A DNA stretch of 64,000 nt from Strigamia acuminata (taxonomy: Eukaryota), in NCBI GenBank assembly GCA_949358305.1, contig OX442314.1, forward strand, positions 3,596,001 through 3,660,000. Direction: 5' to 3'. The translations under genes were made by a program, and so were the position numbers. The number at the start of each line of letters is the position of its first letter. The first letter of the stretch is position 1. Of this stretch, positions 23,149 through 60,593 are shown piece after piece. The notes below the pieces were generated by a model, which was not told where the DNA came from, did not search any database, and worked only from the letters and a program-made list of their open reading frames with translations.

Positions 23149-23273
23149 TTACCTCTTTTGTAGGCTCTGTTGTTTTTAGTGACTCCCATTTCCAACGTGC
23201 CGGTAGGAGTAGACTTTTTACATTTAACGCAAAACATGTTTGTCTTCTTTTTTTTATTACGGGAATATAAAAA

Positions 23274-25161: not shown

Positions 25162-25179
25162 AAAAAAGTAATAATAATC

Positions 25180-27657: not shown

Positions 27658-27831
27658 ATTTTAAAATAATATATACGTATATAAAATATATATAAATATA
27701 TATAATATATAATATATATATAATATATATATATATATAATATATATATAATATATATAATATATAATATATAATATATATAAATAAATATATATAAAAT
27801 AATATATACGTATATAAAAAAAGAAATAAAA

Positions 27832-28655: not shown

Positions 28656-28689
28656 TTAAAAAATAGTTTTTTTCCCTTCTATTAAAAAA

Positions 28690-30330: not shown

Positions 30331-30346
30331 ACTAACCATCGTCATA

Positions 30347-32668: not shown

Positions 32669-32868
32669 NNNNNNNNNNNNNNNNNNNNNNNNNNNNNNNN
32701 NNNNNNNNNNNNNNNNNNNNNNNNNNNNNNNNNNNNNNNNNNNNNNNNNNNNNNNNNNNNNNNNNNNNNNNNNNNNNNNNNNNNNNNNNNNNNNNNNNNN
32801 NNNNNNNNNNNNNNNNNNNNNNNNNNNNNNNNNNNNNNNNNNNNNNNNNNNNNNNNNNNNNNNNNNNN
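32669..32868. other. Assembly gap (200 N)
   Basis: Run of exactly 200 N; base composition differs on the two sides. Confidence 0.99.
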
Positions 32869-34090
32869 AAGACGACGAAGACGAAGACGAAGGCGAAGGC
32901 GAAGGCGATGGAAACGGTGGAAACGACGGCGGTCGCGTCGGACATGGTCGCGGCACCGCTCCTGGACGCGGGATGAAGCGCGATTGCGGTCTAATCGCTA
33001 GCATTGCGAAGAGCAAACGCGAACGTGAGGCTAAACAAATACGTGGACGCGAGCCGACTCCCACTACAAAGTCGTCGCCATCGTCGTCGTCGTCGTCGCC
33101 GGACAATGACAAACCGGATCCGTTCAAGGTAAAGGAAAGGGATCCTTTCCGCTGCTCTCATTAATTTGGTGGTTTGTGTTTGACTGAAATTTCAGACAGC
33201 CTTGTATCGCGAGAAACGAGACATCACGGGAAGCAAATGCGACAGTGTTTACTGCGCGGAGTCGACTAGTCCGCGACTGAGTTGCAAATCGTGTTCCTCT
33301 TCGGTACACGAAGAATGTGTGGGGCGGACATGGACCAACCGGAAAAGCTACACCAAGTTCTTTTGTAGCGGTTGTCGTAAAATTCCTCCCGCTCCTATCA
33401 CGAAACTGCGGTGAGTGTTTTCTTTCATTTTATTCTGTAATTAACTATAATTTTTTTGGCCACACCGTAGTCTAATTCGCTTGTTCATTTTTTGCTAAAC
33501 TAGTTTTAATTATTTCACACAGGTACTCCACTTACTCGATTGAGCAAAATCTCACCAAACACTTCAACATCTGCTTCCAACACGTCGCAGACGTGCTCAA
33601 TGGAAAGCTTAAAAGTTGGCGAATGAACCTCTTTGACAAAGGTGCCCCGAAGCGATCGTCCATGTCGACCGACCGACACGATTTACTGATCCAAGACGAA
33701 GAACTGGTACAGACTATAGATTTTTTATTATTTTTATATGTTTTTGTTTGTTTGTTTGTTTGTTTGTTTGTTTGTTTGTTTGTTTGTTTGTTTGTTCTTT
33801 TCTTTCGTTCGATTGAATTTTGCTCATTTACATTTCAGTGCAAACGTTTTGCTCATTCTATTATAAAGAAAATAAGCACGGACCTGCCCATAAAAACACA
33901 GTATGCGCAGACGTGGGGACCAGACGGAATTGAAACGTTCATGACAGCGGTCGCAATTCCCGAATTTCTGACCCGATTGATCTCTAAGATGGAGGACATC
34001 GATCGGGACCACGCAGACTTTTTCCTGGCTAATGTGGATCGCCCGCGGTATTTTGTTGACGATTTGAAAGACACGCGTGCCAGTCCGTGA
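32869..34090 (+). CDS. Spliced PHD-finger protein, 5' end in the gap (exons ~32869-33128, 33196-33410, 33523-33706, 33839-34090)
   Basis: C4HC3-like CDSVYC...CKSC....HEEC...CSGC; in-frame GT-AG junctions; AATAAA at ~34148. Confidence 0.7.
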
Positions 34091-34859: not shown

Positions 34860-37558
34860 ATGACCGCGCGTTATTTGCAAACCCGAACCCCCTATTATCA
34901 GATACCCGTGTCCAACCCTTCTCGGAGGTTTGTTAAAAGATCTACTCGACCGACTCTGGTAAATCGCGAAGAAAGGTGCACCAAATGTTGTCGCAATAAT
35001 GCATATACATATCGTGGGAATATCCTGCATCCTATTTTCCCTGAAATACCAATGCAAATAGCCACCCGCGCTATTTCCACTGCAAAATTTTCTCGTTCGT
35101 CCGTACTTATTTTACTTTACTTTACTTTACTTTACTTTACTTTACTTTACTTTACTTTACTTTACTTTACTTTACTTTACTTTTTTTTTGTTTTATTTTT
35201 TGTTTTTTTGTTTTGTTTTGTTTTGCCTAGGTCCATGACGGACGGTTTTCCAAAAACGCCCAACGACACGCGCGTATGGGCCGCCACGACGACGCGGTAC
35301 CGACAGGACGTCGGATTCAACGGCGAAACACCCGGCTATCGCGGCCGATGCGTGGCTACCAGCTCGGAATTCGACTATTTCGAGGAACTCTTCGGCGAGG
35401 CGGCCCGCTTCACCGTGACGGCGACGAACCGGGCCATTCGGAGAGAGGCGAAGCAGGAGAAAGAAGTGGGAAGAACGCGAGTACAGGTGTTGGGAAAAGT
35501 TGACGCACACGTTGCACACGTCGTTCACGGGGGTTCTCAGACGCGTTTTTGGTCGATTGTTCGTATAATATACATGTTTTTCGTTTTAGACGCGTTCGAT
35601 GCAACGACCACGAGGTCCGAGAACTAGACAAAGGACGTTGGTCGCCGTGGCTTGCGGTAGTGGCGCTGGAGCACACGGACCACAACGCAGTGTTTTGAGA
35701 GTGTGTATCACCGCGGCCGACAGAAGGGCAGCCGAGCTGGCCGCCGGGCGACAGCCCCGACTTCCGTCTCGACCGCAACACCCGCCACAACCGAGAGGGA
35801 CAGCGACAAGGGCGCGCGCGCGGGTCCGCCCTCTAACGCTCGATGAGTTTTATGTATATCTAGGGATCCACGTCTTGGCCGGCTACAACAAACAACCCGA
35901 ATTGCGACACTACTGGTCGAGCAGCAACGTCGGTGATCTCGGTGCACCGGCCGTTGGGCGAGCCATGACACACAAGAGGTTTCAGGAGATTTCGCGGTAC
36001 CTTCATTACGGCACGCAACCGTCCTACCAACGGTTGCACGTTACCGGCTCTGCACGCGGCCCCGATGGCGGCAGCACAACGGCGGAAAGGGTGTCATTTT
36101 TGAAAGAACGCGAACAGGACGACCGCGCGATGAAAGTTCGCTTGTTCGCCGACCTGGTCAACAAACGCTTCCGCGCATGTCGGCAACCAAGGACGACGCT
36201 CTGCATTGACGAGTCGATGATCGCCTTTCGAGGTCGATCAAAGATAAAAGTGCGTACATTTATTTATTCATCCAGTTGTCTACATTTGTTCATTCGTTCG
36301 GCAAATTTCTTCCAGGTCTTCCAACCGGCCAAACCCATCAAATGGGGATTTGAACTTTTCACGTTGTGCGAAGCGGGCACCGGCTACGTGCTGAACGACG
36401 AGGTGCACTTGGGCAAGCGCACCAAGATGTATTTTGACCCGGACGAAGAGCCGGAACCAGAGTGAGTCAATTCATTGTCTTTTCTATTTCACCTCGGATT
36501 GCTTTACTCCAAACTTGCTAGGTATCCGGGTAGTGTCCTCGGACGCATCGTCGTATACGTGGCCAGACACTATCTCGGCATGGGGTACACTATCGCCTGC
36601 GATAATCGATTTTCGTCCGCCGTGTTATTCGAACACCTCTTCACCCGCCACAACACCATGGCCGTGGGGACGCTGCGGGCCAATTCGGCCCAGATGCCAT
36701 CAGATTTTTCGACACTCAGACGATATCAAGGCAACCGGAGAGGTAACGCATTTGCTCGGACGTGAACGCGCGTTTGATTCATTCAATTATTAATTTTTAT
36801 TCTATCTATCTATCTATCTCTCTCATTTTTTTTTTTTTTGTAGGCGATTTCATACAACGACAAAACGGTCGGTTGGTGCTCACTGCGTGGCGAGACACAA
36901 CCACCGTGAGTTTGCTCAGTACGAACGTCGACCCACTGTCAGCGGCCGGCCGTGTCTTGCGTCGTATCGGTGGCAGGAACGTGGATATTGCATGTCCGGC
37001 GCCCGCACTGTCCTACATCGAAAATTTTCATTGGGTAGACGTCTTGAACCGACTCGTCTCCTCATTCCACATCGGACGCCGGTCCAGTTATTGGCACCGA
37101 TACTTCTTCTTTCAAAAGCTGAATCAAGGTGGGATCAAGGCCCCAATCTCTGATTATTATCATTATTGTTATCGTTACAATCTTAATCTCGACTCGTCGT
37201 TTTCCATTTATTCCCCGCAGTGTGTGTCAACGCCCGAATCAACATGCGCGAAGTCACAGCCCCCGCGCGCGGCGATCGATCGCAATTACAATTCCGAAGG
37301 GCACTTGTCGCTCAACTCTTGGCTCGGGAGAGGACGAGGACGACGACCACGGCCTCGCGCGCGGCCCTACCTACTGGACCCGTCGTCCATCGAATGGAGC
37401 GCGCGGGGAAAAGTTGTCGATGCGTGGTGTGTCGCGAGGTCCACAAAGAACGCCACGAGAGCAGTTTCTGGTGCGCTCCCTGCCGGACCCACCTATGTCG
37501 CCCACGCTACCGCAATTGTTTCCAACTCCACGAAGCCGGCGCCGGTAGATTGCCGTGA
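34860..37558 (+). CDS. Intron-containing piggyBac (PGBD4-like) transposase; exons 34860-34927 (tentative), 35231-35486, 35590-36249, 36316-36461, 36522-36742, 36844-37128, 37221-37558
   Basis: YW...M...RF..I.RYLH, CIDESM (D1), KPIKWG, CDNRFSS (D2), GTLRAN, WRD...LLST, WVDVLN (D3) and C-terminal Cys-rich CVVC...CAPC.THLC.....CF..H; intron phases are compatible; AATAAA at ~37588. Confidence 0.9.
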
Positions 37559-37693
37559 TTTTCTATGCTCTTTTGTTTGTAAAACTCAATAAATAAATAA
37601 ACTTTTATGATTTCCACCAGAACATGTAACAATTTTTTTATCTATTTATCGTGTGATAGATGCAGCGGTGGCGATGATGAGATGACAATAATA

Positions 37694-37770: not shown

Positions 37771-37837
37771 TAAAATAAGAATGGGCATCAATTGACTCGT
37801 TGGTCTCGCGTCGGTTTTTGTATCGTCCGAGTCGCCC

Positions 37838-39185
37838 TCAAATTGTTTCGGGTTTTTCTGGTTGCTCGGTTTGAATGGCTTTGTCGAAAAGATCCGGGGG
37901 ACGACTCAACTTTGGACACGACCCCTAAAAACAGAGAGAATGAAGGGGGAGGGGGAAAAAAAGAAAGAGAAAGAAAGAAAGAGATAGATACACTCACGAA
38001 TCTGGCGATCAACCGCGAACTCCGTTCTTGGTTATGTCGAATTTGCCACTCCTTCCGCAACCGCTCTTTGAGACTTTCCACCAGCACTTCGAGCGCCTCT
38101 ATCTTCGCCGCCCGAACCCCTAGCTCCGTTGAATTATTTTTCAACTGCTCCGCATAACCTCCTACATACCGGGCCCACGATACTCCTTGTCCGGGTGGGT
38201 GCATCGCCCACTCCCGCTGCTGCCTCAGGTCTTCTTCGCGACACTTCTTCTGCCTCTTTAGGTCCTTTTCGCGCCACTCCTCCAACTGAATTTTTTTTTC
38301 TCGCTCCAGTTGCGCGAGACGAAATCGTAATTGATGCTCCTCGTATTCCTTATGGTATTTCAATTGTTGTCGGTATTCTTTTTGGTGCCACGCATCCAGA
38401 TCTTTCATCCTCTCTGTGATCATCAATTTTTCTTTTTCCTCCAGTTGCCCTCGAAGCGATCCTATCTCTCGCTTCAACTCCCCCAACTCGTCATCCACGA
38501 CTCGACGCAACCGTCGCTGCTCCTCTCGTGTTTGTTGAATTTGCGCCAATAGAAACCGCGCGCTCATTGATTCTCCATTTCCTCGCTCTTCCTCTCCAAT
38601 CGCGCGTTTCCGTTTCTCTCCAATCGCGCGTTCCCGATCCTCTCCAATCGCGCGTTCCGAATCCTCTCCAATCGCGCGTTCCAGATCTTCTGCAATCGCG
38701 CGTTTCCGATTCTCCTCAATCGCGAGTTCCCGTTCCATCTCGACATCTTCTTCCATCGCGGGTCGCTCATCTCCTCCTCCTCCTCCCTCGCATGGTACTT
38801 CCACCTCAACCACCCCAATCTAGAGACACAGACCAGTAGATGGGTAAGTAAGTAAGTAAATGGACGAATTAATGAATCGAGGTGAACCAAGGCACGACAT
38901 TACAGATTCTCACTTCGATTTCGGGTTCCTCTTTAGCACTGCACAACGGTGCGTCGTTGACGTTGGCGGCGGCGGCGGCGGCGACAATAGTGAGGGTGGC
39001 GTCATCGTCCCCTTCCTCGTCATCGACCTGGAAATAATTAATCAATCAAATCAGAAAAATATGCACATACGCGCCGTACCACTCCGTTTAATAGCCCGGG
39101 TTCATAAGCATGTAAACGCGCTTACCACGATAACGGGAATAGGTGGCCATCTTGGTCGCCTCTCTTCTTCACGCTTCGGTTCCAT
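37838..39185 (-). CDS. 4-exon orphan acidic/coiled-coil protein (39185-39126, 39027-38914, 38819-37998, 37924-37838)
   Basis: Phase-0 GT-AG junctions; internal 8-aa repeats (ERAIGEDR); long E/R/K/Q helix. Confidence 0.6.
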
Positions 39186-42300: not shown

Positions 42301-42478
42301 ATGGCAGACAGTGATGATGAACGATCGCGTCGAATCCGAGGACGGGGTAGGGCGGCGTGGAGGGGTGTCCCCTCGATTAACGAGATGTGGGCGTCGCCCC
42401 TACCCCGCCCTCAGCAGTTCGCACTTAGACGCGACGCCCAACCGAGGTGAGTAAATTGCAAATTGACACGATTGGTCG

Positions 42479-42517
<39 letters not shown>

Positions 42518-42934
42518 TATTTATTTATTCTTTGTTGCAGCCTTCCGCCGCCACCACGGCCGCCGATAATGCGACATCGAATTGCGGCACTTCGTGCGTC
42601 GGCGGAGGCGGAAGGACGCGCGCGTGCAACTGCGCGCGCGACCGGGTCGGTTGAGTTTGCCGCCCAAGTGCGGGACCCGGCGTTGTCTTTGAGCATGGTG
42701 GCCACGGCGGCTGCCGCAGCGGCCATGACTCTGTCGCAGTCGGTCAGAGCGACACGGGAGTCGGTGGCGGCGGTGGCAGGGGTCGTCGCGTCGGCCAACG
42801 TCACTGACCCCAACGTCGTGGCCGCCATTGAAGAGGCTGTCGATGCCGCCGTAGCCTCATCCGAAGCAGCCGAGGAGGTGCGACGGGCAACTTTGTTCGC
42901 GGCCGAGATGGCAACTCGTCACTTTAATTTTTAA
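42301..42934 (+). CDS. Spliced orphan Arg/Pro- then Ala-rich helical protein
   Basis: MADSDDERSRRIRGRG... exon spliced (GTGAG...TTGCAG, ~42447-42540) to an Ala-rich exon; AATAAA at ~43010. Confidence 0.5.
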
Positions 42935-43687: not shown

Positions 43688-44948
43688 TCAGAGTCCACTC
43701 GAACCAGACTCGACGTGGACGAGGCTGCCACATTCCACGTGTGCGAGAGAAGACATCGTTGTGATTGGGGGTGCCGAAAAATGATGCGCTCGAACAACGA
43801 ACAACACGATTGCGTCGCTATCAAACACCGACGTGCCCATTTGTCTGTAAAAAAAGAACGAGTTTTAAAGGAGTGAAATAAATTAAAATTAAATTTAAAA
43901 CATGTATTCGTACATTTGAGGAGCAGATTAGGCGAATTCACTTTTTCTTTCCGGCGCTCGACTTTCCCTTTCCTTTCCTCTTTCTCTTGCTCCTTGCCCG
44001 TTTCTCTTTCTCCTTCCTCGCCAGTTTCTTTTCTTCGTCTTCGTCCTCATCACTTTCCGCATCGTCCTCAAATTCAGAGTTTCTGTAATCTTCGTCGTCT
44101 TCTTTTTCCTCTTCACACCTTTCACCTGTTTCACGCTCTTCTTCCCGGCGTCTCTCTTCTCCACACCCCTCTCCTTCGTCGTTCTCGGGCTCGCCGACGA
44201 CGACAAACCTCTCCTTCATCAGCACCTCATCAACGAACGAGAAATCTTTATTCTGCAAATAAAACGGGAAAATCAATATCCGAAAAGTGTCGACGTAGAC
44301 GCGCGCGGTAGATTCACTCACCGACATGTCGTTCCATTGGTTTAACATCCCCAGCATCCGGAGTAAGTGGGTCTTGATGTCGGGATCGCCCCAATACTAA
44401 AAAAAAAAATAAAAAATAAAAAAAATATATACATAAATAAATAAATAAAAATAAAAATAAAAATAAAAATAAAAATATATATACTTGTTCCGCCTGAACC
44501 TGAGCCCGTATCGTAAAGAGCAGGAGAGTAAGCGAATGAATGGAGAACCGCATGCTCCCGTCGCGAAAGATTTTCATTTCGTGGTTATCGTCCCAATAGT
44601 TGGGATCGCTGTTGGGTTCGCTGCCCCCTTCCGCGACGGGAACCACCCTCGATCGCAACACCCGTTCCTCTCCCTGCGCATCGCCTCGTTGAAAAGATGA
44701 TGAACGTGACGCCGAATCACCGTCGTTGTCGTCGTCGTCGTCGTCGTTGTCTCCGACGCGCTCTCCCTCTCCCTCTCCCATCCCCGGTGCCCATGCAATG
44801 CGATATCTGTGTTTGACCAACCAGTGGTCCTCTAGTCGGTCAACCACAGGCCTCGCAATGCAGAATGGGCACCGTTTCAGGGCCTTGTGCATTTTTTTCA
44901 ACTTCTAGGAAACAGAGGAAAAAATAAATAAATAAATAAATAAATTAA

Positions 44949-44983
<35 letters not shown>

Positions 44984-47900
44984 AACGAATCGACTAATTG
45001 ATTAAATACCCACCGGCAACAGGAGATCGGGTCTACGCGAATAGTCCCGCAGATGCTTCCTGACTCTCTTGGAGATTTCATCCTCGCGCTTAACTGCGTC
45101 TAGGTGGTGATGTTGGCGCCAATGGCGGTACGCGTCCTCGCTGAAATATCCGTATTTCGACACCCCTAAGGTACGCGGGAGGGGAAAGGAAAAAAAAAAA
45201 ATAAAAAAAAAATAAAAATTAGACAAAAAATAAACAAACAAACAAATAAGCAAATGTATGTTTCTCATTACCCGGTTGTTTGGCGCACAGAGCACAATAG
45301 AACGACTTCCCGCCCTCTGTCCGGAGTTTTTCTCCCTTCTTTCCTTTCCCTCCACCCTGGCGTCGTTGCCGTGTTGGCACCGCCCCCGTCTCCACCTCCC
45401 CCACCTTCCGGAGCACCCATTTCTGGAACTCTTCGAACCGTCGATCCAACTCCATCGACAAGTTGGACGGAAGGTTGGACGGAAGCCCACTCGGTCCTGC
45501 CCTGCCAGACGGCACCACCGAGCCCTGGGATGCAGATGCCTTTCGTATCTGAAAGAAATGGAAGGAACGATTGAACAAACGATCAAAGACAAATAGACCA
45601 GACAGGTTACCTTTTCCGTCGACCGCGTGACTCGAGTCTCCGACCTTTTCGACGCGGGTTCCCATAACGGTGATGCGGGCCGCTTCGACGCGGATCTTCG
45701 CGGCTTGGCGATGACACGCGCCAGTTGCTGTTCTTGCGGCGGCGGGGGGGCGATGGGCTCAGATGGTGGCACGGTGAAACACGGCGTCGACATAACCGGG
45801 CACGGCGCCGACATGACAGGACGTGGCATTGGTGTGAGGATCGGCAACTGCAGCCGTTCCAACCTCACGACGGGGCACATTAAAGGCATTTTGCCTAATG
45901 TCGCCGTTGGTTGAAGTGGTGGCGACCGCGGCGGTGACAGGTCTGGTGACGACGGGACCGTCACAACGCTTGGCATCGTCCAAGTGCACCCTGATGTGCT
46001 GGGCAACGACTGGAGAAAAAAAAAAATAAATAAATGAATAAACGAACAAACAGACGGGCAAATAAATATACGATATTGCATGTCGAATCCAAGTTTGTGC
46101 GCGGGTCGGATTCATACGATCAATCCGCTCAATGCGCGCGCGGCAAATTAAATTTGCGGGTTAAATTATAGTGCGCGCGCGGGAATTATTAATTTACGTC
46201 AAATCAACGTGATCGCTTTTCAATTTCAAATTGGAACGCGATCACGTTGATTGTCAAAATAAAATGGTCAGTTACTACGTTACCTCGAATACTTCCTTTT
46301 CCACCTTCTCAACGGTCTTCCGTTTCTTTTTCGCACCCCCTTTCCTCACACACTTCCTCTTCTTCGGTTCCGTCGCCGTCTCCTTCTCCTTTTCCTTCTC
46401 CTCCACTGCCTCTTCCACCGCCGTTTCCTTCCACGTCTCCTTCTCCTTCTCCAACTCCACCTCCATCTCCGGCCACACTATTCCCATCTCCTCCACTGTC
46501 TCTTCCACCACCGTCTCCTTCTCCTTCTCCGTCTCCGACACAGTCTCTTCCACCGCCTTCTCCTTCTCCGTCTCCGACACAGTCTCTTCCACCGCCTTCT
46601 CCTTCTCCGTCTCCGACACAGTCTCTTCCACCGCCATCTCTTTCTCCACCTCCTTCTCCGGCACAGTCTCTTCCACCGCCTTCTCCTTCTCCGTCTCCGA
46701 CACAGTCTCTACCACCGCCTTCTCCTTCTCCGTCTCCGACACAGTCTCTTCCACCACCGTCTCCTTCTCCACCTCCTTCCCTGACACAGTCTCTTCCACC
46801 GCCTTCTCCTTCTCCGTCTCCGACACAGTCTCTTCCACCGCCATCTCCTTTTCCGTCTCCGACACAGTCTCTTCCGCCGCCCTCGCCTTCCCCACCTCCT
46901 CCACGATCTCATCCACAACCCCCCCCACAATCTCATCCGCCGTCCCATCCGTTTCTCTAAAAAAAAAAAATAAATAAATAAATTGTGAGACGTTGCGTGC
47001 AAGACCCGAAGAGCGCGTGGAACTCACGTTTGTGGCAGGCTCGATGACCACACGGAATGCCCCGTGCTTTGTGATAGGTCCAAGGCACCGTCGTCGTTGG
47101 GTCCGTCCTGGTAAGAAACGAGTAAATATAATTACAAATGTGTGCATAATTAAAAAATAAATAAATAAATAAATAAATAAATAAAAATGAAAAAAGGGGG
47201 CCAAAAAGACGCCCACAATTAAAATGACTAACTTGTACTAAAAAAAAGAAAAGGAAAAAATTAACCAATAAATGAATTAAATTTAAATAGACCCTGACAT
47301 TAAATGTGTCGGTAAAGAGCACGCATTTGATGTGCGCGCCTAACTCGAGATGACGCGCGTTGGTTGGTCGTTTTCACATTTCGTCTGCGCCGATCGTGTC
47401 GGAAACATGAGAGTCAAGAACACTCTTGTAAACTCGACTTTGATTCTTTAGCCTACCGTTGCAGTTGCGGGTTCATGGTCCGGTGCCCCGGAAGACGCGA
47501 TGCATTGTGCGACTCGAAACAAGACGTTCGACATGACTTCGGACGCGGCCTGACAGGAAACAAGCAAATGTGAATATTCAAACGGATTGAAAAGAAAAAG
47601 AAACAAAACAGAAAAAAAAATGCATATACTGTATACAGTATATCTGTGATTACTCTGCGGGTCTTTGATAGCGCGCGGACTTGTTTTAAGGCGTGGGGAT
47701 GAATGCGGATTTTGTGAATAACGTGTGGGTCCCGTATAGCGCATGGGGCCGATTGTTACGTTTCCGAAACATGATCGTCGTTACGCGCGGGACCAATAGT
47801 CAAGTCTCCGAAGATATTGTTAAAAAATTGACGAAATGTTGTTGAAAATTGACGAATTTTGATGGAAATTGACTAAATTTTGACCAAATTTGACAAAAAA

Positions 47901-49941
47901 ATTGGTTAATTTTGTTAAATATTGACGAATTTCGTAATCTTATAATTTTTCATGTTTGTTTGAATTGAAGCGCAGGTCTTTAATAACGCACGGGACCATT
48001 TATTTTTAAATAGCGCACGGGTGCGCTATTTACAGATAAACGGTATCCTCGATTTGTACACGTGTCTTCGGTGGGACAATTTTAGTTCACGAATAACGCG
48101 CGCGGGCCTCTGATCGTACACATGAGAAAATTTGTCCCCAGATAGCGTGTGGATGCACTATTTGGAGATATACGGTGTATAATTTCTATTTTTCTAATTC
48201 TAATTCACTCACCGTCCCTGCATCTCCAACGATGGCCTCCATTATTGCCCGCCTCTCTATCAGCCTATCCACCCGCCTCTCCACCACCCTCTCCACCACC
48301 CTCTCCACCAGCCTTTCGTGGTACAACACCACCCTGGACTCGGAGGGTTGAGACTCGCTGAATTCCGTGTCTTGGGATTCCTCCAGCATCGGCTCTGTTG
48401 GTTGCGATTGCGAGTCGTCCAGAATCGACTCCACTGGACGTCGTCGAGATGTGTCCATTGTGGCCTGATTAAAAACGAGCAAATATAATAAATAAAAAAA
48501 TAAAAATAAAAACAAAAAATAAAAATAAAAATAAAAAAATGAATAAAAATAGAAAAAGAAAAAGAAAAATCAATTAAAAGAAAAAAAAAAATGGGGGGGG
48601 GGGATGGGGGGGGGGGAGGGAAGGGAGTGGACACGTAAAACAAATTGAGACGCGGGGCGTCGAACGACAAAAAATTGGACGCGCGTGTTCGCGTATTTTC
48701 GCGCGCACAAACATGGGAGAATGGGTCACAATTGCGTCGATCGCGCCAGAACCAGCAACGAAAGCTTATCCTCGCAAAATTAATTTTGATTATGGGCCAA
48801 TTCTTTCACTCACCGCCGTCGACGCTTCCACAGTGACCAACCTCTCGTCCACGTGCGGTTCCGTGTCCTGGAACGATACGAATGTGTATGAATAAATCAG
48901 CGTTTAAAAAATAAATAAATAAAATAAAATAAAACAAAGAAAGTTTAGAAAAATGGAAAATAGCGGGTCCGTACCCCGGACCGTGCCCATTTCCACGCGG
49001 ATATTAGAATTTATTCCTATCCCGACGTGGCCCCTCTCCACGGATCTCAGATTTAATTGTCGGAAGAAAAATTTGATCACTACTTTGCAATTGGCATTCG
49101 ATGCTGTTAAATGGTTGGAGAATCGGGACCGTTTGTCATTGCTTAAAATTGGCACAGATAAGAGATCGCGCATAAATGGGACAAAAAAATTAAATTTAAA
49201 AAAATGAAATTTTTACACGTGATATGAATCAATTTTTAATGTCCGCGCGGAAATAAATAAATTATTTTCTATTTTTATTTCGCGAATTAGGCAGAAATAT
49301 TTATTTATTTATGTGTTTGTTTATCTATTTTTCATCAATAATAATAATAATAATAATATTGTTAATCGTGAGACAATTTTTCCACTCACCGTCATCGTGG
49401 TTGCAACTTCGGTTGACCCCTCCTCGGTTTCTAATTTTTCATTTTCCATCTTCCCACCTTCCGTCTCTTTGTTTGCGTCGGATGTCTGTAAGGGAGAGAA
49501 AATAAAAAATAAAAATAAAAATAAAAACATTTTTCGTTTGTGTCGGCATATTCCGCTCTAAACGCGCGATTTGAAAACGACCACAAATCCGTGCTCGACG
49601 ACGGTGCGTGGCAACGAGTGGACCAATACGGTATACACGTGTGCATATGAATCGATGAATCGTGTATAAATCAATAAATAAAAAATGTATACATTCGTCT
49701 AATTTTAATAAACCTCGTTCGCCGTCGATCGGGTAAAAATCATCCACGTTACACCGCAAACGCTCACTCACGTACACTCCCGCGACCAAACACAAAAATC
49801 CATGCGCGTTGTTCGACGACCACATGTGTGCACACGTACGACCACGGACGCGATTCATTGACAAAAATATCGCAAAAATTCGTAAAAGCCGCCCAAATTT
49901 ACCTGCGGAGACGCGACCGAGCATAAACTTCCCGCTTCCAT
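43688..49941 (-). CDS. 13-14-exon orphan nuclear protein: acidic repeats, ALDLS and PxVxL motifs, two C2H2/BED-like zinc fingers, acidic plus basic tail
   Basis: Hand-spliced from ATG 49941 through approximate exons 49485-49390, 48866-48813, 48463-48211, 47549-47457, 47108-47029, 46956-46284, 46009-45612, 45548-45273, 45165-45014, 44904-44485, 44396-44322 and 44251-43942; all GT-AG and in frame. Fingers CALC...YRHWRQHH and CPFC...LEDHWLVKH. Stop at 43938, or 43688 if a last intron is used. Confidence 0.7.
47634..48044. mobile_element. Degenerate Tc1/mariner-like MITE inside an intron
   Basis: TACAGTATATCTGT ... ACAGATAAACGGTA imperfect inverted ends; internal AATAGCGCACGGG-like repeats. Confidence 0.4.
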
Positions 49942-53100: not shown

Positions 53101-53398
53101 CAATAGAGGCGTTCGTGGCCTCGTTTCGTGCAACACTTGTCACCGATTTCTATTCTTTTATTTAACTCGACACGATCGTTTGCGCGCGGGATTTGACGCC
53201 CGTTCGCGTAATCCGCGTCCTTTAATGGACGCCAAAAATGTTTGTTGCGACGGTAGCGCGTTCTGGCGGCAATTTAGCGCAATGAAGCGCGATCACGGCG
53301 GACCAGAGAGAGAGAGAAAGAGAAATCGACACGACTCGACGGGAACTTATTTTTGGAACAAATTTATTGGGGGCTGCCGTCACCAGCTGCCCCGTATG

Positions 53399-53934
53399 TG
53401 TTGGTCAAAAGACCATTTTGTATCGATGAATACATTTGTTATTTCCTAGTTTTCCCTTTGTGTTTAGGTATACAGCGCATCTTTGTTATTATTTAATTGA
53501 TTTCGATGTTACCATTCGTTTTGCGCTGTCCCGTATGTAATTCCATACTTTTATCACTTTATGCTAGGATTTGTCCTATTATCAAATGATTTGTTCAAAC
53601 TTAATGTAAATTCCCGGCACTAGGTGCCACTACCCATTGCTTTTTCATCCAAGATGGCGTCATACACAGCCGTGTATGACTTAGCTGCTTTCCCACCTGT
53701 TTGGATACCTATTTGTAATGTATTACTATTTAATTAAACCGTTTTTATTGTTTTGCTCATTGTGTTTGATTTAAAGCACCTTTAGTGCTTCTTGCTAGCG
53801 CATATAAGCGGCATTAGGCCGCGCGCATTTCCGAAACGATACGCGTCGTATCGTTAACGTCTGTGCGGGTCGCACAGCGCCAATTCACGCTTTCAATCGG
53901 TTTACACCGATATTTTGCGCATTCTCTGCCTACA
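53399..53934 (+). repeat. 5' LTR
   Basis: TGTTGG...CCTACA; matches 60058-60593. Confidence 0.97.
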
Positions 53935-53935
53935 T

Positions 53936-53953
53936 TGGTAGCAGAGGATGGTT
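53936..53953 (+). promoter_or_regulatory. Primer-binding site for initiator tRNA-Met
   Basis: TGGTAGCAGAGGATGGTT is complementary to the 3' 18 nt of animal tRNA-iMet. Confidence 0.93.
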
Positions 53954-54843
53954 GTTGGTTAAACAACCACTCCATTCGCCTAATTTATCGACGTTTTTTC
54001 GCGAAATTCGCGAATTTGCGCCGATATTTTTATTTTCAGATTTTCGGCGGCCATTTTGTCTCGATTTTCGTCTCGCCTGCGACGCCGACGTTTTATCGAC
54101 GTTCACAGACGACCAGGGTCGTCAATCACACCATTATTTGTCTAATTTTCTCCGAAATTCCGCGGGATTCGCGAATTTCGAGAGAATTTCTTTCTTTTTG
54201 CAGATTTCACGTCGATTTTCGCTTCGCCAACGTCGAAGCGACGTTTTTCAACGAGAAACGGATCGAATTCCGCTGTGTATACCCCGGCGTATGCACAGTA
54301 TCGTCGATCTATTATTTTCCGGACGAAGAGCCTCGATTTATCGAGAAGAAATTCGGATTTTTCAATCCGAATTTGCGCTTTTTCCAGTTTTTCGAGAAAA
54401 CTGCGCCGTGCCTTCATTTGCACGAGGATCGCAACCGCGATCGATTCACCTATTTCTCCTTCTGTCGAAATACTATTGTTAATTTTAAGATATTATTAAG
54501 GCTTTTGGGGGTTCCTTTAGAATCGTGTTTGCCCTTGGATCGAGTCCGGTCAAGCTTACACGTATTCTCCGGTTGTGCTTGTCGTGGTACAAGTGAGGTT
54601 TCCCGCGGCTCCAGGAAGCCGATCGGACCCTCTCAGACTGGCAACCGGAGGTTATTTGATTCCTTCAGAAGGAATTGCCCAATTTGTGGTTTTTCGCCTC
54701 GAACACCGAGGGAACCGTGCAGTGAAGTGCTCCGAATTGTGAAAATTGTGAAAAGTGCTCCAATCTTGTGCGACATTTCAGCGCCTCTCTCTGAGTCAGT
54801 GTGATTTTCGCGTTGTGTTACGCTCTTCGCGAATCGATCTACG

Positions 54844-57800
54844 ATGCAGAAAGCGGCCAACTCGAACAGTTTAATTCCGGTTCTCGGTGTCGACAATTAT
54901 GAACAATGGCGATTGTCGATGCAGTTTCTCTTAAAATCGGAAGGGCTTTGGCGTCACGTAACGGAGGATAAGGAGGCAGAGCACATTGCCACCCTGACGC
55001 CAAAAGAACTTGATCGCTTTATGGTGAAGAAGGACAAGGCCCTAGGCCACATATACATCCATGTGAGCCCCGCCAAGCGTACAGTTTTGGAAACCTGTAA
55101 CACGCCAAAGGAGGCGTGGGACAAGTTGGCGAAAACCTACGCACCCAGCTCTAGAGCCCGTCAAGCGGCGATGCGCTGGGAGTTTCTCAGCCTCCAACTC
55201 CAACCTGGCGAAGATATGCCGGACTTCATTGCCCGCGTCGACAATTACGTGCGGCAACTAAGCGATGTCAACGAGATTATTAGCCCGGTTCACCACGCAT
55301 ACCAGTATTTGAAGTGTCTGCCGCCTGAATATGCTCAGGCAACATTTGCCATATACCACTGGCCGGATCCCCAATTCACGCCGAAGGATGTCGCCGAGCA
55401 GCTGATTTCCGAGCACATGCGGCTCAAATCCATCGGGTTGCTCGGAACGAGCCAATCATCAGCTCACACGTCTATGAAGGGACAATTCCGACCCCGAAAT
55501 AAATCCGGACCTCGTGATATCTCGACAGTGAAGTGTTTTAATTGCGACCAGCTCGGACATTACGCGAACCGATGTCCACGTCCACCCCGTCAACAACAGG
55601 GACAACCTACGGTTTCACTCCAACGTAATTCTCGGAGCAAGAGTCGCCGGCGCAACAAGAACGCTGCTGCGAAGGCCAACAACGCGCGTCCCCGAGAAAG
55701 CTCGCATCCACACCGAGAGGGGACATATTTTGTCAATGCGCCGCAGGTTATCCAACGTCCAGTCGCTCATTTTATGCAATCCAATGAGTGGATTCTGGAT
55801 TGCGGCGCTACAGATCACGTATCTCACGTGCGTGCCGGTTTCACCGAGTTCACCGATGTCATTCCATTCGACATCGAGTTGGGACAGGGAAAGTCCCAAG
55901 TGACGGGAAAAGGAACGGTTCGTTTGCTAATGGCGATCGATAAGACCCGGTGCACCGTGAATTTAACAAACGTCCTTTACGCGCCGAATTTCGAGGCAAA
56001 CTTGATTTCGGTTTCGAAGATAGACAAGGCGCGACATCATATCCACATTTTCAATAGTGAGATACATGTTTACGAATCGGACATTCGCAGCCCTCTTATT
56101 CGTGCAAACGAGAGAGGAGGTCTTTATTATGTGGACGGTTTGTGTACAAATCCGACATTTGCGACAACGGTTTCTCCCACTGTACAACCGACTCCAACGC
56201 TACCGCCGCAAATGTACGTGACTACGGAAGAGGATTTCATTAAAATTCCCAAACCGAAAAAGGGAAAAGGACAGCAACGAGAAATTACGGATTTTCGGAT
56301 TGAAATGCCGCTAGTTGAACCCGTGAAGCAAATTCCCGTCCAACAAGCTCCCATTCCAACCAATCCGATTCCTCCTCCTATCCCTACTCAAATCCACAAC
56401 GATTTGACCACCCTTCCTTCCTATGCGAATGCCCTACAGTCAATCCCAACGGCAACTCCTATTGCAATTCCAAATGCAAATTCCTTTCCTCCCCTTGGCA
56501 ACCCGTCTCAACCTAAAAAGAAGGTCATCGCCAATCCAGCCTCCGTCAAGGACGCCACCGGCTTATGGCATAGCCGTCTTGGCCACCTTCATACGAATGG
56601 AATGAAGCTATTGGCCGCAAACGACCAAGTTTACGGAATGTCACCAGGGGAAGTGAGCAGGGAATTGGCCTGCAACGACTGCAGAATAGCCAAATCGACA
56701 AAAGCTTCTCATAAGCCTGATCCTAATCCCTCGACTACGAAGCCTTTGGACCTTCTCCACATGGATATTTGGGGGCCAGCCCCAGTTCCATCGTTTGGAG
56801 GAGCACGTTTTGTCCTTACCGTCATCGACGACGCAACACGCTATTGCTGGATTATACCGCTAGCCCAGAAATCGCAGGTTTTCGCAACCTTTAAGGACTT
56901 CGTTGCTCGAGTTGAGAGAATCCAGGACACGCAAATAAAAGCGATTCGGACTGATCGAGGCGGAGAGTTTATGTCAAACGAGTTTCTCCGATATCTACAA
57001 GCCAAGGGCATCCAAGGTCAACGGACAAATCCGTCGTCACCACAGATGAACGGCACGGCCGAGCGCATAAACCGGACAATGGCCGACAACTTTCGTGCAG
57101 TCTTATCCGAGACTAAGTTGCCGGAGGCGCTCTGGGCCGAGCTAGCGGTCACGTTTGCCTACATCAAGAATCGGAGCCCTCATTCTCGACTTAACAATCA
57201 AGTTCCGTATATCCTTTGGCGACAGAGAGCCCTTTCGTTACGACATCTACGAAAAGTCGGTTCCAAGTGCTGGGTGCACTACACCGCACCAGGACGCAAG
57301 AAGCTGGATCCGCGGGCCTGGGAGGGATATTTAGTCGGCTACGCTTCAGGGACCCGTGGATACAGAATTTGGAACCCAACTGACAACCAAGTCTACGAAT
57401 CTATTCACGTTAAGATCGATGAGCGGCAGTCGTATCGGAAATCCATCAAAATTTCGACGCAGCAGCCGCAACAATCGTTTACTGGTCCCGGACAGCAAAC
57501 CGTTACATTTGATGATAACCTACATTACCATCAGTGGCCGAAAGGATCTGATTCCGAGGCGTCAGAACATTCTGCGAACGATTCCGAACGTGTGTCGACG
57601 GCATCCGCTTCGATGCACACGCCTCTGGCTTTTCCGCACATCCACATACCACCACCGACAACTCCGGAACGGGCATTGCTGGATTTATGTGCGACCTTAC
57701 CTCCGGGTTCTGCGTCTCTTCGACAATCCCATCATATTTCATATGAAGAGGAACGTGATACGGACCACGACATCCGAGAGATGGACGAATTGTCAATTTA

Positions 57801-59847
57801 TCCGGAAACATCCGAACACGTTGATGCGTCAGCGGAACAATCGGCACGACCATCGCCTCCGACAACTCCTCGTACATCCGCTCCGCCATCACCTCAGCGA
57901 TCGGCAGCGCCTTCTCTTCCCCGTGAAACACCGGTACCGACGCCGAGATTTATTACGACGCGTCGTCAGCAACGTGTTGATGATCAGGCTGCGCAAGGGT
58001 TGCAAATTTTCGACCCCGATCCCAATTCACCAGCGACTGCGCGCCACACTACTCATAAGTGGCGATTCGTCGGTGGAGATGGCGAGTGCCGTGAATGGGT
58101 ACGCGAGGAACACCTGAGAAAGGATCAAAAACCCGGGAAGATCTTAATTGATGTCTATTATTTTCCAACTCCGAAGATCCGTCTAAGATCTTATCACGAC
58201 ATCGAGGAGTATTGTATGTTGAACAATATTGATTACGACCCCGGACTGTTTTTCTTCGGTAATCTCGAACACAAATTGCCAACTCTTCCGGGCGTTCGTC
58301 ATGCGGCTCATCTGTGCCGAACCGAGCCGGCTTCATTCGCCGAAATTCCCAAGTTCAACGACGCTCCGAAATGGCGTGAAGCAATCGGAGAGGAACTCGA
58401 TATGTTCAAAGAGCGAGAAATCTATAAAGAAGTTCCCCGACCACCCGACACCACTATTCTTGGCTGCAAGTGGATTTTTAAACTCAAAACCGATGCAGCC
58501 GGAACCGTCACCCGATACCGAGCACGCTTAGTAGCACAAGGTTTTTATCAAACCCTCGGAGTCGATTTTGATGAGGTGTTTAGCCCAGTCGTGAACTTCA
58601 TATTGATCCGTCTGTTTTTCTGTCTTCTCGTCGTATTGCGTGGTTGGCAGGACGCCCACCTCGACGTGAAAGGTGCGTACCTGTACGGGGAATTAAAGCA
58701 TAACGTATACATGAGAATCCCTGCAGGTGCCACATGCACTGATCCAAATAACGTGTGGCTTCTTCTCAAATCGCTTTACGGCCTCCACCAATCCGGGAGA
58801 CAATGGTTCGAGAAACTTGACGAGACACTTCGGGCCCTCGGATTTCGAAGACTGCCAGCATGTAATTGTGTTTACGTGTTCGGGAATACAGCTGTTATGC
58901 TGGTCTACGTGGACGATATCGTCGTGTTTTACGCGTCCGACAGCGTTTTTAATCAGCTAATCCGTCTCATCTCTTCGAAATTCGATATAGTCAACCTCGG
59001 TCCAATCACGAAGTTATTAGGCGTCGAGTTTATCCGCGACGCCGGACGCACGTTCATAACGCAACGTGCTTATATCGCCAAACTGGTTAAGAAATTCGGG
59101 GCGTCGACCAATAATCTCGTCAAGACACCAGTGACCCCGGGAACGACACTCGTTAGAGGATCGACCGAAAACTTGGAAGATTTTCCATACCGATCTCTAA
59201 TCGGTTCACTTCTGTTTTTGGCATCGAGAACTCGTCCCGACATACTCTATTCCGTCATCGCTTTGGCACAGTACAACACGTGCTATAATCGAACCCACAT
59301 CCGCGCCCTGTTACAGGTTCTGCAGTACGTGGCAAACACTGCGGAGCTTTGCATCGAGTTATCCGGTTGCTCTTCTAGTCAACTATCTGCATTTACCGAC
59401 GCGTCGTGGGCAAGCGATCCGGAGACATCATTGAGCTTCGGAGGATACATCGTATACGTTGGAAATGTCCCTATTGGCTGGTCCTGTCGCAAACAGTCGA
59501 CCGTAGCGTGCTCAACCATGGAAGCTGAATTTATCGCCCTGGTTGAGTGCGTGAAGGAGATTTTCTGGCTCGACAGCGTGTACACCGAATTCCCGATTCT
59601 CAATCGTCTATCCCGACCTATCGTGTATTCGGACGCCCTGGCCTCGATTCAATTCACATCTAATGATATCGAGAACGCGAAGACGAAGCATATTCGCGTG
59701 AAGTTTCACTGGCTCAGGGAGTGGTTTACTGCGGGAGTCTTCGATCTTCGAAAGGTAGCCGGCGAAGCTAATACCGCCGACATATTCACAAAGTGGCTAT
59801 CTTCGGAACGTTTACGATCATTGATTTCGAAGATCTTCCGAGCATAA
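54844..59847 (+). CDS. Copia polyprotein: Gag - Zn knuckle - protease - integrase - MBD - RT - RNase H (1667 aa)
   Basis: CFNCDQLGHYANRC; WILDCGATDH; LWHSRLGH..C..C; HMDIWGP / RTDRGGEF / NGTAER; MBD-like WVREEHLRK...DVYY...LRS; LDVKGAYL, SLYGLHQSGR, YVDD; TDASWA, STMEAE, ADIFTK. Confidence 0.97.
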   Translation: MQKAANSNSLIPVLGVDNYEQWRLSMQFLLKSEGLWRHVTEDKEAEHIATLTPKELDRFMVKKDKALGHIYIHVSPAKRTVLETCNTPKEAWDKLAKTYAPSSRARQAAMRWEFLSLQLQPGEDMPDFIARVDNYVRQLSDVNEIISPVHHAYQYLKCLPPEYAQATFAIYHWPDPQFTPKDVAEQLISEHMRLKSIGLLGTSQSSAHTSMKGQFRPRNKSGPRDISTVKCFNCDQLGHYANRCPRPPRQQQGQPTVSLQRNSRSKSRRRNKNAAAKANNARPRESSHPHREGTYFVNAPQVIQRPVAHFMQSNEWILDCGATDHVSHVRAGFTEFTDVIPFDIELGQGKSQVTGKGTVRLLMAIDKTRCTVNLTNVLYAPNFEANLISVSKIDKARHHIHIFNSEIHVYESDIRSPLIRANERGGLYYVDGLCTNPTFATTVSPTVQPTPTLPPQMYVTTEEDFIKIPKPKKGKGQQREITDFRIEMPLVEPVKQIPVQQAPIPTNPIPPPIPTQIHNDLTTLPSYANALQSIPTATPIAIPNANSFPPLGNPSQPKKKVIANPASVKDATGLWHSRLGHLHTNGMKLLAANDQVYGMSPGEVSRELACNDCRIAKSTKASHKPDPNPSTTKPLDLLHMDIWGPAPVPSFGGARFVLTVIDDATRYCWIIPLAQKSQVFATFKDFVARVERIQDTQIKAIRTDRGGEFMSNEFLRYLQAKGIQGQRTNPSSPQMNGTAERINRTMADNFRAVLSETKLPEALWAELAVTFAYIKNRSPHSRLNNQVPYILWRQRALSLRHLRKVGSKCWVHYTAPGRKKLDPRAWEGYLVGYASGTRGYRIWNPTDNQVYESIHVKIDERQSYRKSIKISTQQPQQSFTGPGQQTVTFDDNLHYHQWPKGSDSEASEHSANDSERVSTASASMHTPLAFPHIHIPPPTTPERALLDLCATLPPGSASLRQSHHISYEEERDTDHDIREMDELSIYPETSEHVDASAEQSARPSPPTTPRTSAPPSPQRSAAPSLPRETPVPTPRFITTRRQQRVDDQAAQGLQIFDPDPNSPATARHTTHKWRFVGGDGECREWVREEHLRKDQKPGKILIDVYYFPTPKIRLRSYHDIEEYCMLNNIDYDPGLFFFGNLEHKLPTLPGVRHAAHLCRTEPASFAEIPKFNDAPKWREAIGEELDMFKEREIYKEVPRPPDTTILGCKWIFKLKTDAAGTVTRYRARLVAQGFYQTLGVDFDEVFSPVVNFILIRLFFCLLVVLRGWQDAHLDVKGAYLYGELKHNVYMRIPAGATCTDPNNVWLLLKSLYGLHQSGRQWFEKLDETLRALGFRRLPACNCVYVFGNTAVMLVYVDDIVVFYASDSVFNQLIRLISSKFDIVNLGPITKLLGVEFIRDAGRTFITQRAYIAKLVKKFGASTNNLVKTPVTPGTTLVRGSTENLEDFPYRSLIGSLLFLASRTRPDILYSVIALAQYNTCYNRTHIRALLQVLQYVANTAELCIELSGCSSSQLSAFTDASWASDPETSLSFGGYIVYVGNVPIGWSCRKQSTVACSTMEAEFIALVECVKEIFWLDSVYTEFPILNRLSRPIVYSDALASIQFTSNDIENAKTKHIRVKFHWLREWFTAGVFDLRKVAGEANTADIFTKWLSSERLRSLISKIFRA

Positions 59848-60045
59848 ACTTATCGTGACATTCCTAGTTTCTTTTCACCCGACTTCGAGGATCATCGGGT
59901 TTCTGTGGGAATACCGAGCTTAGTTAAGTGATAACCACGACAGTACCCGGCCCGATGGTTCGACTTTATCATCTTTTTTTTCTCAACGATTATCAACTGT
60001 AATTCCAGTTTACGTTCATCTTGTCCCCTGATAAATATTTCCATC

Positions 60046-60055
60046 GAAGAGGGGA
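60046..60055 (+). promoter_or_regulatory. Polypurine tract
   Basis: GAAGAGGGGA, 2 nt before the 3' LTR. Confidence 0.85.
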
Positions 60056-60057
60056 TT

Positions 60058-60593
60058 TGTTGGTCAAAAGACCATTTTGTATCGATGAATACATTTGTTA
60101 TTTCCTAGTTTTCCCTTTGTGTTTAGGTATACAGCGCATCTTTGTTATTATTTAATTGATTTCGATGTTACCATTCGTTTTGCGCTGTCCCGTATGTAAT
60201 TCCATACTTTTATCACTTTATGCTAGGATTTGTCCTATTATCAAATGATTTGTTCAAACTTAATGTAAATTCCCGGCACTAGGTGCCACTACCCATTGCT
60301 TTTTCATCCAAGATGGCGTCATACACAGCCGTGTATGACTTAGCTGCTTTCCCACCTGTTTGGATACCTATTTGTAATGTATTACTATTTAATTAAACCG
60401 TTTTTATTGTTTTGCTCATTGTGTTTGATTTAAAGCACCTTTAGTGCTTCTTGCTAGCGCATATAAGCGGCATTAGGCCGCGCGCATTTCCGAAACGATA
60501 CGCGTCGTATCGTTAACGTCTGTGCGGGTCGCACAGCGCCAATTCACGCTTTCAATCGGTTTACACCGATATTTTGCGCATTCTCTGCCTACA
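60058..60593 (+). repeat. 3' LTR
   Basis: No difference from the 5' LTR seen by eye. Confidence 0.97.

Follow-up and report, generated by a model that had tools for sequence, protein, structure and literature searches.

A twelve- to fourteen-exon orphan gene model in a window rich in mobile elements, predicted to encode a mostly disordered and probably nuclear protein with two finger motifs

Gene structure and coding signature

The locus lies on the minus strand, at positions 43688-49941 of a 64,000-nucleotide stretch of Strigamia acuminata DNA that was analysed as a whole (hereafter, the window). Twelve predicted coding exons between 49449 and 43938 join as one frame of 2850 nt, corresponding to 949 codons and a stop (Table 1). 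The eleven introns of this short form all run from GT to AG and their acceptors are T-rich. If one further exon is added at each end, a long form of 14 exons and 1025 residues is obtained, in which the introns are again GT-AG (13/13) and mostly of phase 0 (10/13). An alternative donor in exon L, at 43942/43941, bypasses the TGA: with this donor the optional last exon contributes 51 additional residues; otherwise it is 3' untranslated. A preliminary description of the locus had proposed 13 or 14 exons in one continuous frame with mostly phase-0 introns, and the long form reproduces its ends, its exon count and the prevalence of that phase.

Table 1 Features of the gene model (window coordinates; residue numbers refer to the 949-residue short form)
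Feature	Coordinates	Strand	Description
Optional first coding exon	49903..49941	-	ATG at 49941, 13 codons, phase-0 donor GTAAAT; lengthens the frame by 25 residues; predicted
Exon A	49390..49485	-	Acceptor at 49486; open frame from 49485; short-model ATG at 49449
Exon B	48814..48867	-	Residues 21-38
Exon C	48213..48464	-	Residues 39-122; acidic Ser/Gln-rich start, then Glu-Arg-Val/Leu stretch with a 4-residue period (48332-48228)
Exon D	47457..47549	-	Residues 123-153
Exon E	47028..47107	-	80 nt, residues 154-179; ALDLS at 47086-47072
Exon F	46284..46956	-	Residues 180-404; tandem acidic units, then Lys/Arg cluster (46364-46317)
Exon G	45611..46009	-	Residues 405-537; Pro/Ser-rich; PVVRL (45874-45860) within a 15-residue hydrophobic/basic patch (45889-45845)
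Exon H	45272..45548	-	Residues 538-629; basic Gly/Lys stretch, then CxxC half of finger 1 (from 45296)
Exon I	45014..45165	-	Residues 630-680; histidine half of finger 1 (H-W-x3-H, to 45104) and basic linker
Exon J	44485..44904	-	Residues 681-820; finger 2 (44871-44809); Asp run (44784-44710); hydrophobic C-terminal region starts at 44601
Exon K	44322..44396	-	Residues 821-845; the next intron is 69 nt long, in frame and stop-free
Exon L	43938..44252	-	Residues 846-949; hydrophobic region ends at 44190; acidic tract; basic tail (44030-43941); TGA at 43940-43938
Optional last exon	43688..43844	-	GC 0.54; preceded by a 97-nt intron of GC 0.28; predicted

The coding sequence has a GC content of 0.57 and a third-position GC content (GC3) of 0.68, against a GC content of 0.34 in the introns. 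Codon position 2 is poorer in GC than position 3 in 11 of the 12 exons and poorer than position 1 in 10 of them. In the model frame no exon contains a stop, while exons C, G, I, J and L have between 1 and 10 stops when read in another frame. For exons F and H, repeats and composition leave further frames open (three of six and five of six are open, respectively). The frame exceeds chance, and the base composition is of the coding type. Two sequencing runs from one study, neither of them an RNA run, were found to contain this stretch; their contigs span the introns without splice-type joints and were read as genomic DNA. They show two coding variants, both of which change an amino acid (V852G and E576G), a number too small to interpret and without sign of constraint.

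Features of the predicted protein

The predicted protein is rich in glutamate (151 of 949 residues), and in most 30-residue windows 60-90% of the residues are of the disorder-promoting type. Exon F encodes about ten tandem acidic units of 13-15 residues with a 39-nt period, roughly between 46900 and 46374; the four 13-residue units that were compared are near-identical, with differences at 2 of 39 bases. Lys/Arg clusters of the nuclear-localisation type are found at residues 378-393 and 929-949, and a hydrophobic stretch of about 85 residues lies near the C-terminus.

Two finger motifs of the form C-x2-C...H-W-x3-H lie 70 residues apart with a basic linker between them. The putative ligands of finger 1 are C622, C625, H644 and H648-650, and the motif is cut by a phase-1 intron (45271-45166). 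Those of finger 2 are C692, C695, H707 and H712; it begins with CPFC and carries acidic residues just before its first histidine. The two motifs resemble each other weakly (P = 0.02). Classical C2H2 fingers follow the spacing C-x2-4-C-x12-H-x3-5-H. Here, the second cysteine and the first histidine are separated by 18 residues in finger 1 and by 11 in finger 2, and no Pfam zinc-finger family matches exons H, I or J at E ≤ 1; both are candidate fingers of a non-classical kind. The preliminary description had pointed out a finger split by an intron, a second finger and an acidic tail with an NLS-like end, and all of these were recovered, the tail being in the last large exon. The two short motifs discussed below, ALDLS and PVVRL, lie at the positions that it had given.

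In a single-sequence AlphaFold model of exon J, the histidine half of finger 2 is covered by a helix and the C-terminal end forms a hairpin plus a helix, with a pLDDT of 66-77 in those elements and a low mean of 50. The frame that reads through the intron between exons K and L, which might be retained, was modelled with similarly low confidence (mean pLDDT 56), and neither model is good enough for comparison with known folds.

Search for relatives

Pfam searches with ten exon translations returned two sub-threshold matches only, which are attributable to chance (Lar_restr_allev, E = 0.061; PBP1_TM, E = 0.15), and nothing meaningful was found for the optional last exon, two read-through frames and exon A read from its acceptor. 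Word-index searches yielded 545 candidates among longer proteins for exon J and 3296 for the 369-residue read-through frame with exons G and I, none of which scored. Exon J was also compared exhaustively, by HMMER, with 1.84 billion representative proteins, and no relative emerged: the two matches at E ≤ 0.001 both cover its acidic low-complexity part, one of them (P0002) being an acidic repeat protein on inspection and the other (P0001) having been judged from the match table. A search of PDB sequences with exons J, I and H and the K-L frame returned nothing relevant. Among viral contigs, 600 pattern matches were obtained and none was confirmed as a relative. Three metagenomic loci were retrieved, again without a relative: two (L002 and L003) translate to unrelated PSNL repeats, and the match of the third (L001) falls on the same repeat stretch. 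Within the window, no second copy or paralogue was detected, and Rfam and tRNA scans found nothing. Finally, a feature-based search gave no usable match for exon I and only weak leads for exon J (scores of 0.85-0.88, where scores below 0.9 count as leads only and one third of shuffled proteins also reach ten matches from the same clan). The gene is thus an orphan, with no detectable relatives in the databases searched.

Genomic neighbourhood

Several mobile elements share the window with the gene. A Maverick/Polinton-like element occupies about 21.3-33.2 kb, frames resembling a piggyBac transposase lie at 35.6-37.6 kb, and a young element of the Copia type spans 53396-60593. About 10 kb separate the gene from the Polinton genes, and 3.4 kb separate it from the Copia LTR. 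Its two flanks match each other only in A/T runs and (TTTA)n microsatellites, without terminal repeats. Domains of the transposase, integrase, capsid or polymerase type were detected neither in the gene nor in 73 flanking frames of at least 70 residues (of 91 listed, the others having already been scanned or lying inside the gene). The GC3 of the Polinton genes (0.40-0.50) is below that of the gene, which falls within the range of four ABCA exons from the same window (0.53-0.70). The preliminary description had considered the gene possibly element-encoded, a suggestion that finds no support here: transposase, integrase and capsid domains were detected neither in nor beside the gene, its flanks carry no terminal repeats, and its GC3 resembles that of the ABCA gene. 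The convergent neighbour on the plus strand has the same build, with GC-rich exons and introns rich in (TTTA)n, a likeness in architecture that fits a host gene. As a side observation, the best match of the ABCA gene in the window is a Drosophila protein, with 29% identity.

Short motifs resembling HP1 and CtBP ligands

The only PxVxL pentamer of the protein is PVVRL (residues 450-454), which, taken as a bare PxVxL, could well arise by chance (P = 0.24). The core pentamer of HP1 chromoshadow-domain ligands has a hydrophobic residue or proline at -2, valine or isoleucine at 0 and an aliphatic residue at +2. A refined signature for Drosophila HP1a further calls for a basic residue at +4 and for three to six basic residues between -4 and +4, and it excludes acidic residues at -6, -3, -1, +1 or +5 and aromatic ones at -4 or +6; conservation of the motif is a further criterion for HP1a sites (PMC12526061). 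Centred on V452, the site presents a hydrophobic residue at -2, valine at 0, leucine at +2 and arginine at +4; it respects all the acidic and aromatic exclusions and fills the five favoured hydrophobic flanks (5/5). Only the basic count is lacking (two, Arg +1 and Arg +4, against three to six), so that this 15-residue context agrees with all items but one of a signature derived for Drosophila and the strict signature has no site in the protein. None of 20000 whole-protein shuffles and 0.0002 of those with the composition of exon G were as good as this site, by a yardstick set after the site had been seen. The nearest likeness is to Drosophila HP1a partners with extended PxVxL motifs, or "HP1a Access Codes", such as HP5 and XNP, which share the hydrophobic residues at -2 and +2, the valine at 0, the basic residue at +4, the alternating hydrophobic flanks and the disordered setting, whereas the present site has a glutamate at +3, where a basic residue is favoured, besides its lower basic count (described features from PMC12526061).

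The second motif, ALDLS (residues 161-165), lies in a sequence rich in Asp, Gly and Ser and is identical to a validated non-canonical CtBP-binding variant; the exact pentamer occurs in 0.0012 of shuffles. The canonical CtBP pattern begins with proline, or with glycine plus a basic residue. Neither PxDLS nor the ELM-style pattern has a match in the protein. The zinc-finger corepressor adaptors ZEB and WIZ recruit CtBP through PxDLS-type motifs, and their families have several classical fingers recognised by Pfam and conserved orthologues. They are comparable to the predicted protein in combining C2H2-type fingers, long disordered regions and a CtBP-type motif, but the latter has two non-classical fingers, no Pfam match and no relatives. 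Human RAI2 (retinoic acid-induced 2) is closer in the motif itself: this nuclear protein has two validated CtBP-binding ALDLS motifs with an affinity of about 5 uM, located in sequence without a predicted fold (PMC11187106). As described in the same source, the two RAI2 motifs are 21 residues apart and polymerise CtBP, whereas a single ALDLS is present here (PMC11187106). Moreover, RAI2 has neither fingers nor an acidic repeat, and no sequence similarity between it and the predicted protein was found. PVVRL and ALDLS both lie in disorder-type sequence; each is present once, and both were chosen post hoc from hundreds of known short motifs.

Alternative explanations

Several scenarios may explain these observations. 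The locus might not be a working gene at all, but an unexpressed, recently arisen or decaying one whose long open exons are in good part a product of repeats and composition. The absence of detected homologues would agree with this scenario, as would the near-identical tandem repeat that keeps exon F open in half of its frames, the five open frames of exon H and the fact that both coding variants are non-synonymous. Nevertheless, one frame is kept over 12 exons and 11 canonical introns, no other frame (or almost none) is open in exons C, G, I, J and L, and the GC contrasts, among codon positions as well as from exon to intron, are those of coding sequence, which makes this scenario improbable. 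An origin as cargo or derivative of a mobile element or virus, for instance as an (anti-)silencing factor of a neighbouring element, could be suspected from the abundance of Polinton-like, piggyBac-like and Copia-type sequences in the window and from the lack of relatives, which is common among fast-evolving element genes. Yet its distances to the Polinton genes and the Copia LTR, flanks that share only simple repeats, the lack of mobile-element domains in the gene and the flanking frames, the single copy in the window, the 11-13 spliceosomal introns, a GC3 like that of ABCA and unlike that of the Polinton genes, and a scan of viral contigs that yielded no relative all argue against it, and we regard this origin as very improbable.

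Other alternatives concern the activity of the protein. It could be a disordered hub whose PVVRL binds the HP1 chromoshadow dimer and whose ALDLS binds CtBP, thereby recruiting or decoying both silencing factors. The disorder-type setting of both motifs, the single deviation of the V452 context from the HP1a signature (PMC12526061) and the identity of ALDLS with the RAI2 motif (PMC11187106), rare in shuffles, are consistent with such a hub. It is nonetheless an unlikely explanation, since the bare PxVxL is at chance level, the strict HP1a signature and the canonical CtBP pattern have no match, and single copies were picked after the fact from a large repertoire of short motifs. Alternatively, the fingers could be of the small protein- or ubiquitin-binding kind found in TRAFD1, XAF1, Di19 and UBZ proteins, in which case the protein would act as an adaptor, in signalling or in a ubiquitin-dependent manner, and not by binding nucleic acid. 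The exon J leads shown with a family name (CEP104_ZnF, Znf_XAF1_N, zf-Di19, TRAFD1-XIAF1_ZnF, zf_UBZ and zf-TRAF) point in this direction. The small CCHH fingers of TRAFD1/XAF1, Di19, CEP104 and UBZ are the nearest neighbours of exon J in feature space, and share with finger 2 the CPFC start and a short helix with two histidines; finger 2 also has acidic residues directly before its first histidine. However, every score is in the range that counts as a lead only, a third of shuffled proteins likewise reach ten same-clan matches, Pfam models of these families give no match at E ≤ 1 and exon I has no usable match, so that an adaptor of this kind appears quite unlikely.

Favoured interpretation and significance

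With moderate confidence, we favour the reading that positions 43688-49941 of the minus strand carry an intact frame, interrupted by GT-AG introns, whose predicted product is a mostly disordered protein of 949-1025 residues that is likely to be a nuclear, lineage-restricted, chromatin-associated scaffold. In such a scaffold, the basic clusters would direct nuclear import, the two fingers and their basic linker may bind either nucleic acid or another protein, and the acidic repeats could bind basic proteins such as histones. The hydrophobic patches within disordered parts, namely the PVVRL patch and ALDLS, might serve as docking sites, with HP1 and CtBP as candidate partners. We infer the nuclear location and all of these binding activities from the composition of the sequence. 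The most specific version of this proposal would be a taxon-restricted disordered zinc-finger scaffold, encoded among young mobile elements, that bridges both main silencing machineries, using an extended PxVxL to contact the HP1 dimer and an ALDLS of the RAI2 type to contact CtBP; we consider it highly doubtful.

The main lesson of this locus is that a multi-exon model can be assembled from raw sequence, and that matches to short motifs do not by themselves amount to function. If expressed, the gene would extend the list of disordered, fast-evolving nuclear zinc-finger proteins by an example from a eukaryotic lineage that has been little sampled. If both motifs were functional, a single orphan protein touching HP1 and CtBP would offer a compact entry point for studying how adaptors specific to one lineage meet the conserved silencing machinery near active mobile elements.

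Gene model and coding evidence

Read directly from the sequence, the region from 49941 down to 43688 on the minus strand alternates GC-rich blocks with AT-rich stretches that start with GT (often GTGAGT) and close on a T-rich tract followed by AG. When the blocks are spliced together by their coordinates, they give a short form of 12 coding exons (lettered A to L, 5' to 3'). The reading frame of this form starts with the ATG at 49449, runs for 949 codons without a break and stops at the TGA at 43940-43938; all of the form's 11 introns (62-663 nt) are GT-AG. An optional exon may be added at either end (see table), the last one having a GC content of 0.54 against 0.28 in its 97-nt intron. The resulting long form has 14 exons and 1025 residues, 13/13 introns being GT-AG and 10 of the 13 in phase 0, and thus exactly reproduces the ends and the 13-14 exons of the preliminary description, as well as its mostly phase-0 introns. 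We take the predicted gene model to be correct in outline, with both ends uncertain.

The coding sequence has a GC content of 0.57 (0.68 at third positions, GC3) and the introns 0.34. Position-2 GC is lower than position-3 GC in 11 of the 12 exons and lower than position-1 GC in 10. The model frame is free of stops in every exon. In exons C, G, I, J and L the alternative frames contain 1-10 stops, but exons F and H, owing to their repeats and composition, have several open frames and so add little coding evidence. No RNA run is among those listed for this DNA; two sequencing runs from a single study contain it, with the introns covered and no splice joints. Three sites vary in them: one lies in an intron and the others change amino acids (V852G and E576G). 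On window positions 43900-49500 (5.6 kb) these runs consist of thousands of very short contigs with very high word depth (up to 25,000 for single contigs) and just those three common variant sites, and have the look of a small target sequenced to great depth, not of an ordinary whole-genome run. CpG is over-represented (observed/expected 1.39 in the window and 1.97 in the introns of 43938-49449), which suggests a genome without CpG methylation loss, and strand-specific (TTTA)n tracts precede many acceptor sites.

Features of the gene, its predicted product (residues of the 949-residue model) and the window
Feature	Position	Strand	Remarks
Optional first exon	ATG at 49941	-	13 codons; joins in phase 0 the frame that is open 5' of the ATG at 49449
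Optional last exon	43844-43688	-	GTGAAT donor overlaps and removes the TGA
Acidic, Ser/Thr/Gln-rich region	residues 1-80		
Glu-Arg-Val/Leu stretch	residues 83-117		four-residue period
ALDLS	residues 161-165		within Asp/Gly/Ser-rich sequence
Tandem acidic units	residues 205-345		about ten, 13-15 residues each
Lys/Arg cluster	residues 378-393		
Pro/Ser-rich region	residues 405-540		PVVRL at 450-454
Basic Gly/Lys stretch			followed by two C-x2-C...H-W-x3-H motifs
Finger 1	C622, C625, H644, H648-650		split by phase-1 intron
Linker between fingers			strongly basic
Finger 2	C692, C695, H707, H712		followed by Asp run
Hydrophobic stretch	residues 782-866		~85 residues across three exons
Acidic tract, basic tail			after hydrophobic stretch
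Convergent neighbour gene	42303-42931	+	at least two GC-rich exons; Ala-rich; no Pfam match; AATAAA ~80 nt beyond stop
Maverick/Polinton-like element	21300-33200		
 candidate adenain-type protease	21382-21804	-	by eye
 integrase (rve, chromo)	21801-22763	-	
 A32-type ATPase	23271-23948	+	
 double jelly-roll capsid protein	26326-27654	+	E=2.9e-64
 adenain-type protease look	28206-28655	+	by eye; no Pfam match
 protein-primed type B polymerase	30350-32641	-	
 200-N gap	about 32.67-32.87 kb		just upstream of polymerase, same open frame
piggyBac-type transposase	35590-37592		DDE_Tnp_1_7, E=5e-29 for first frame scanned
Glu/Arg/Lys-rich frame	37791-38819	-	343 residues; repeated 'ERAIGED'-like units; coiled-coil-like; no family match above threshold
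Copia-type LTR retrotransposon	53396-60593		539-bp LTRs, 53396-53934 and 60055-60593
 uninterrupted frame	54805-59847	+	1680 codons
HSP90-like short frame	61999-62352	-	internal piece; Pfam E=5.1e-05, 22.9 bits (cut-off 24.4)
Direct duplication	1-3865, 14143-18006		3.9 kb, 99.9% identity; includes ABCA exon (2969-3601 = 17111-17743)

Protein layout and short motifs

The model contains the features previously pointed out: the intron-split finger, a second finger with CCHH ligands, the closing acidic tract and NLS-like basic tail, and the ALDLS and PVVRL motifs. There is only a weak resemblance between the fingers (P=0.02 against shuffles). Four 13-residue acidic units that were compared are almost identical in DNA, varying at 2 of 39 positions, and the array is therefore young or homogenised. 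Structure predictions for exon J (residues 681-820) and for a frame reading through the K/L intron were of low confidence.

The two short motifs had suggested a hub binding both HP1 and CtBP. The canonical CtBP pattern begins with Pro; this pattern, in the form used here, has no match in the protein, and ALDLS does not fit it. In human RAI2, however, two motifs of identical sequence bind CtBP at about 5 uM (PMC11187106), and a Drosophila preprint describes ALDLS as a non-canonical ligand of the conserved cleft (10.1101/2025.06.30.662346). An exact ALDLS turns up in a fraction of 0.0012 of shuffles, but the motif is a single pentamer picked post hoc out of a large catalogue of short motifs. As for PVVRL, shuffles of the protein contain a bare PxVxL 0.28 times on average (P=0.24). 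Compared with the refined Drosophila HP1a signature (PMC12526061), the site around V452 (position 0) agrees in its Pro at -2, Val at 0, Leu at +2 and Arg at +4, in the hydrophobic residues at 5/5 favoured flank positions and in being free of the acidic and aromatic residues that the signature excludes. Yet that signature requires 3-6 basic residues between -4 and +4, and the site, which has 2, falls outside its strict form. Equally good sites are essentially missing from shuffles, by a yardstick set after the V452 site was seen. We consider it unlikely that the protein binds both HP1 and CtBP.

Relatives and genomic context

No relatives of the protein were detected. Pfam scans of every exon, PDB sequence searches, two word-index searches among longer proteins (545 and 3296 candidates, none scoring) and scans of viral contigs gave nothing, and a paralogue is absent from the window. 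An exhaustive HMMER search with exon J against 1.84 billion representatives returned two low-complexity matches only. Three metagenome loci were rejected: translation showed two of them to be artefacts of a PSNL repeat, and the remaining one matches that stretch as well. In a feature-space search, exon J came nearest to small TRAFD1/XAF1/Di19/UBZ-type fingers (0.85-0.88, rated as a lead only), and exon I gave nothing. These blanks call for careful reading, because the queries were single exons, the exhaustive pass took just one of them (140 residues), and sampling of the lineage is poor, the best match to an ABCA exon of the window being just 29% identical, in Drosophila.

The gene had also been suspected of being element-encoded, in a eukaryotic window that holds ABCA transporter exons together with a Maverick/Polinton-like element, piggyBac-like frames and a Copia-type element. 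The last ends 3.4 kb from the gene and looks young, given its 99.8% identical LTRs and uninterrupted frame; the distance to the Polinton genes exceeds 10 kb. In direct or inverted orientation, the gene's flanks share A/T runs and (TTTA)n microsatellites only, and no mobile-element domain turned up in 73 flanking frames (out of 91 frames of at least 70 residues, the rest scanned previously or within the gene). GC3 falls within the span of four ABCA exons (0.53-0.70) and above that of the Polinton genes (0.40-0.50). The introns, the ABCA-like GC3 and the flanks free of element marks thus favour a host gene, and an element origin finds no support.

Among the neighbours, the convergent gene is built like the one studied and ends about 0.7 kb from its 3' end. 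A quick self-BLAST found no terminal inverted repeats for the Maverick/Polinton-like element. The piggyBac-type frame runs on through three overlapping open frames and is either intron-interrupted or degraded; the HSP90-like frame could be an isolated exon or part of a pseudogene, and the 3.9-kb duplication reflects either a recent segmental event or an artefact of assembly.

The reading that we somewhat favour is a genuine gene, restricted to its lineage, whose product would be a nuclear and largely disordered scaffold. Judging from composition, the two fingers and their basic linker would bind nucleic acid or partners, and the acidic repeats may bind basic proteins.
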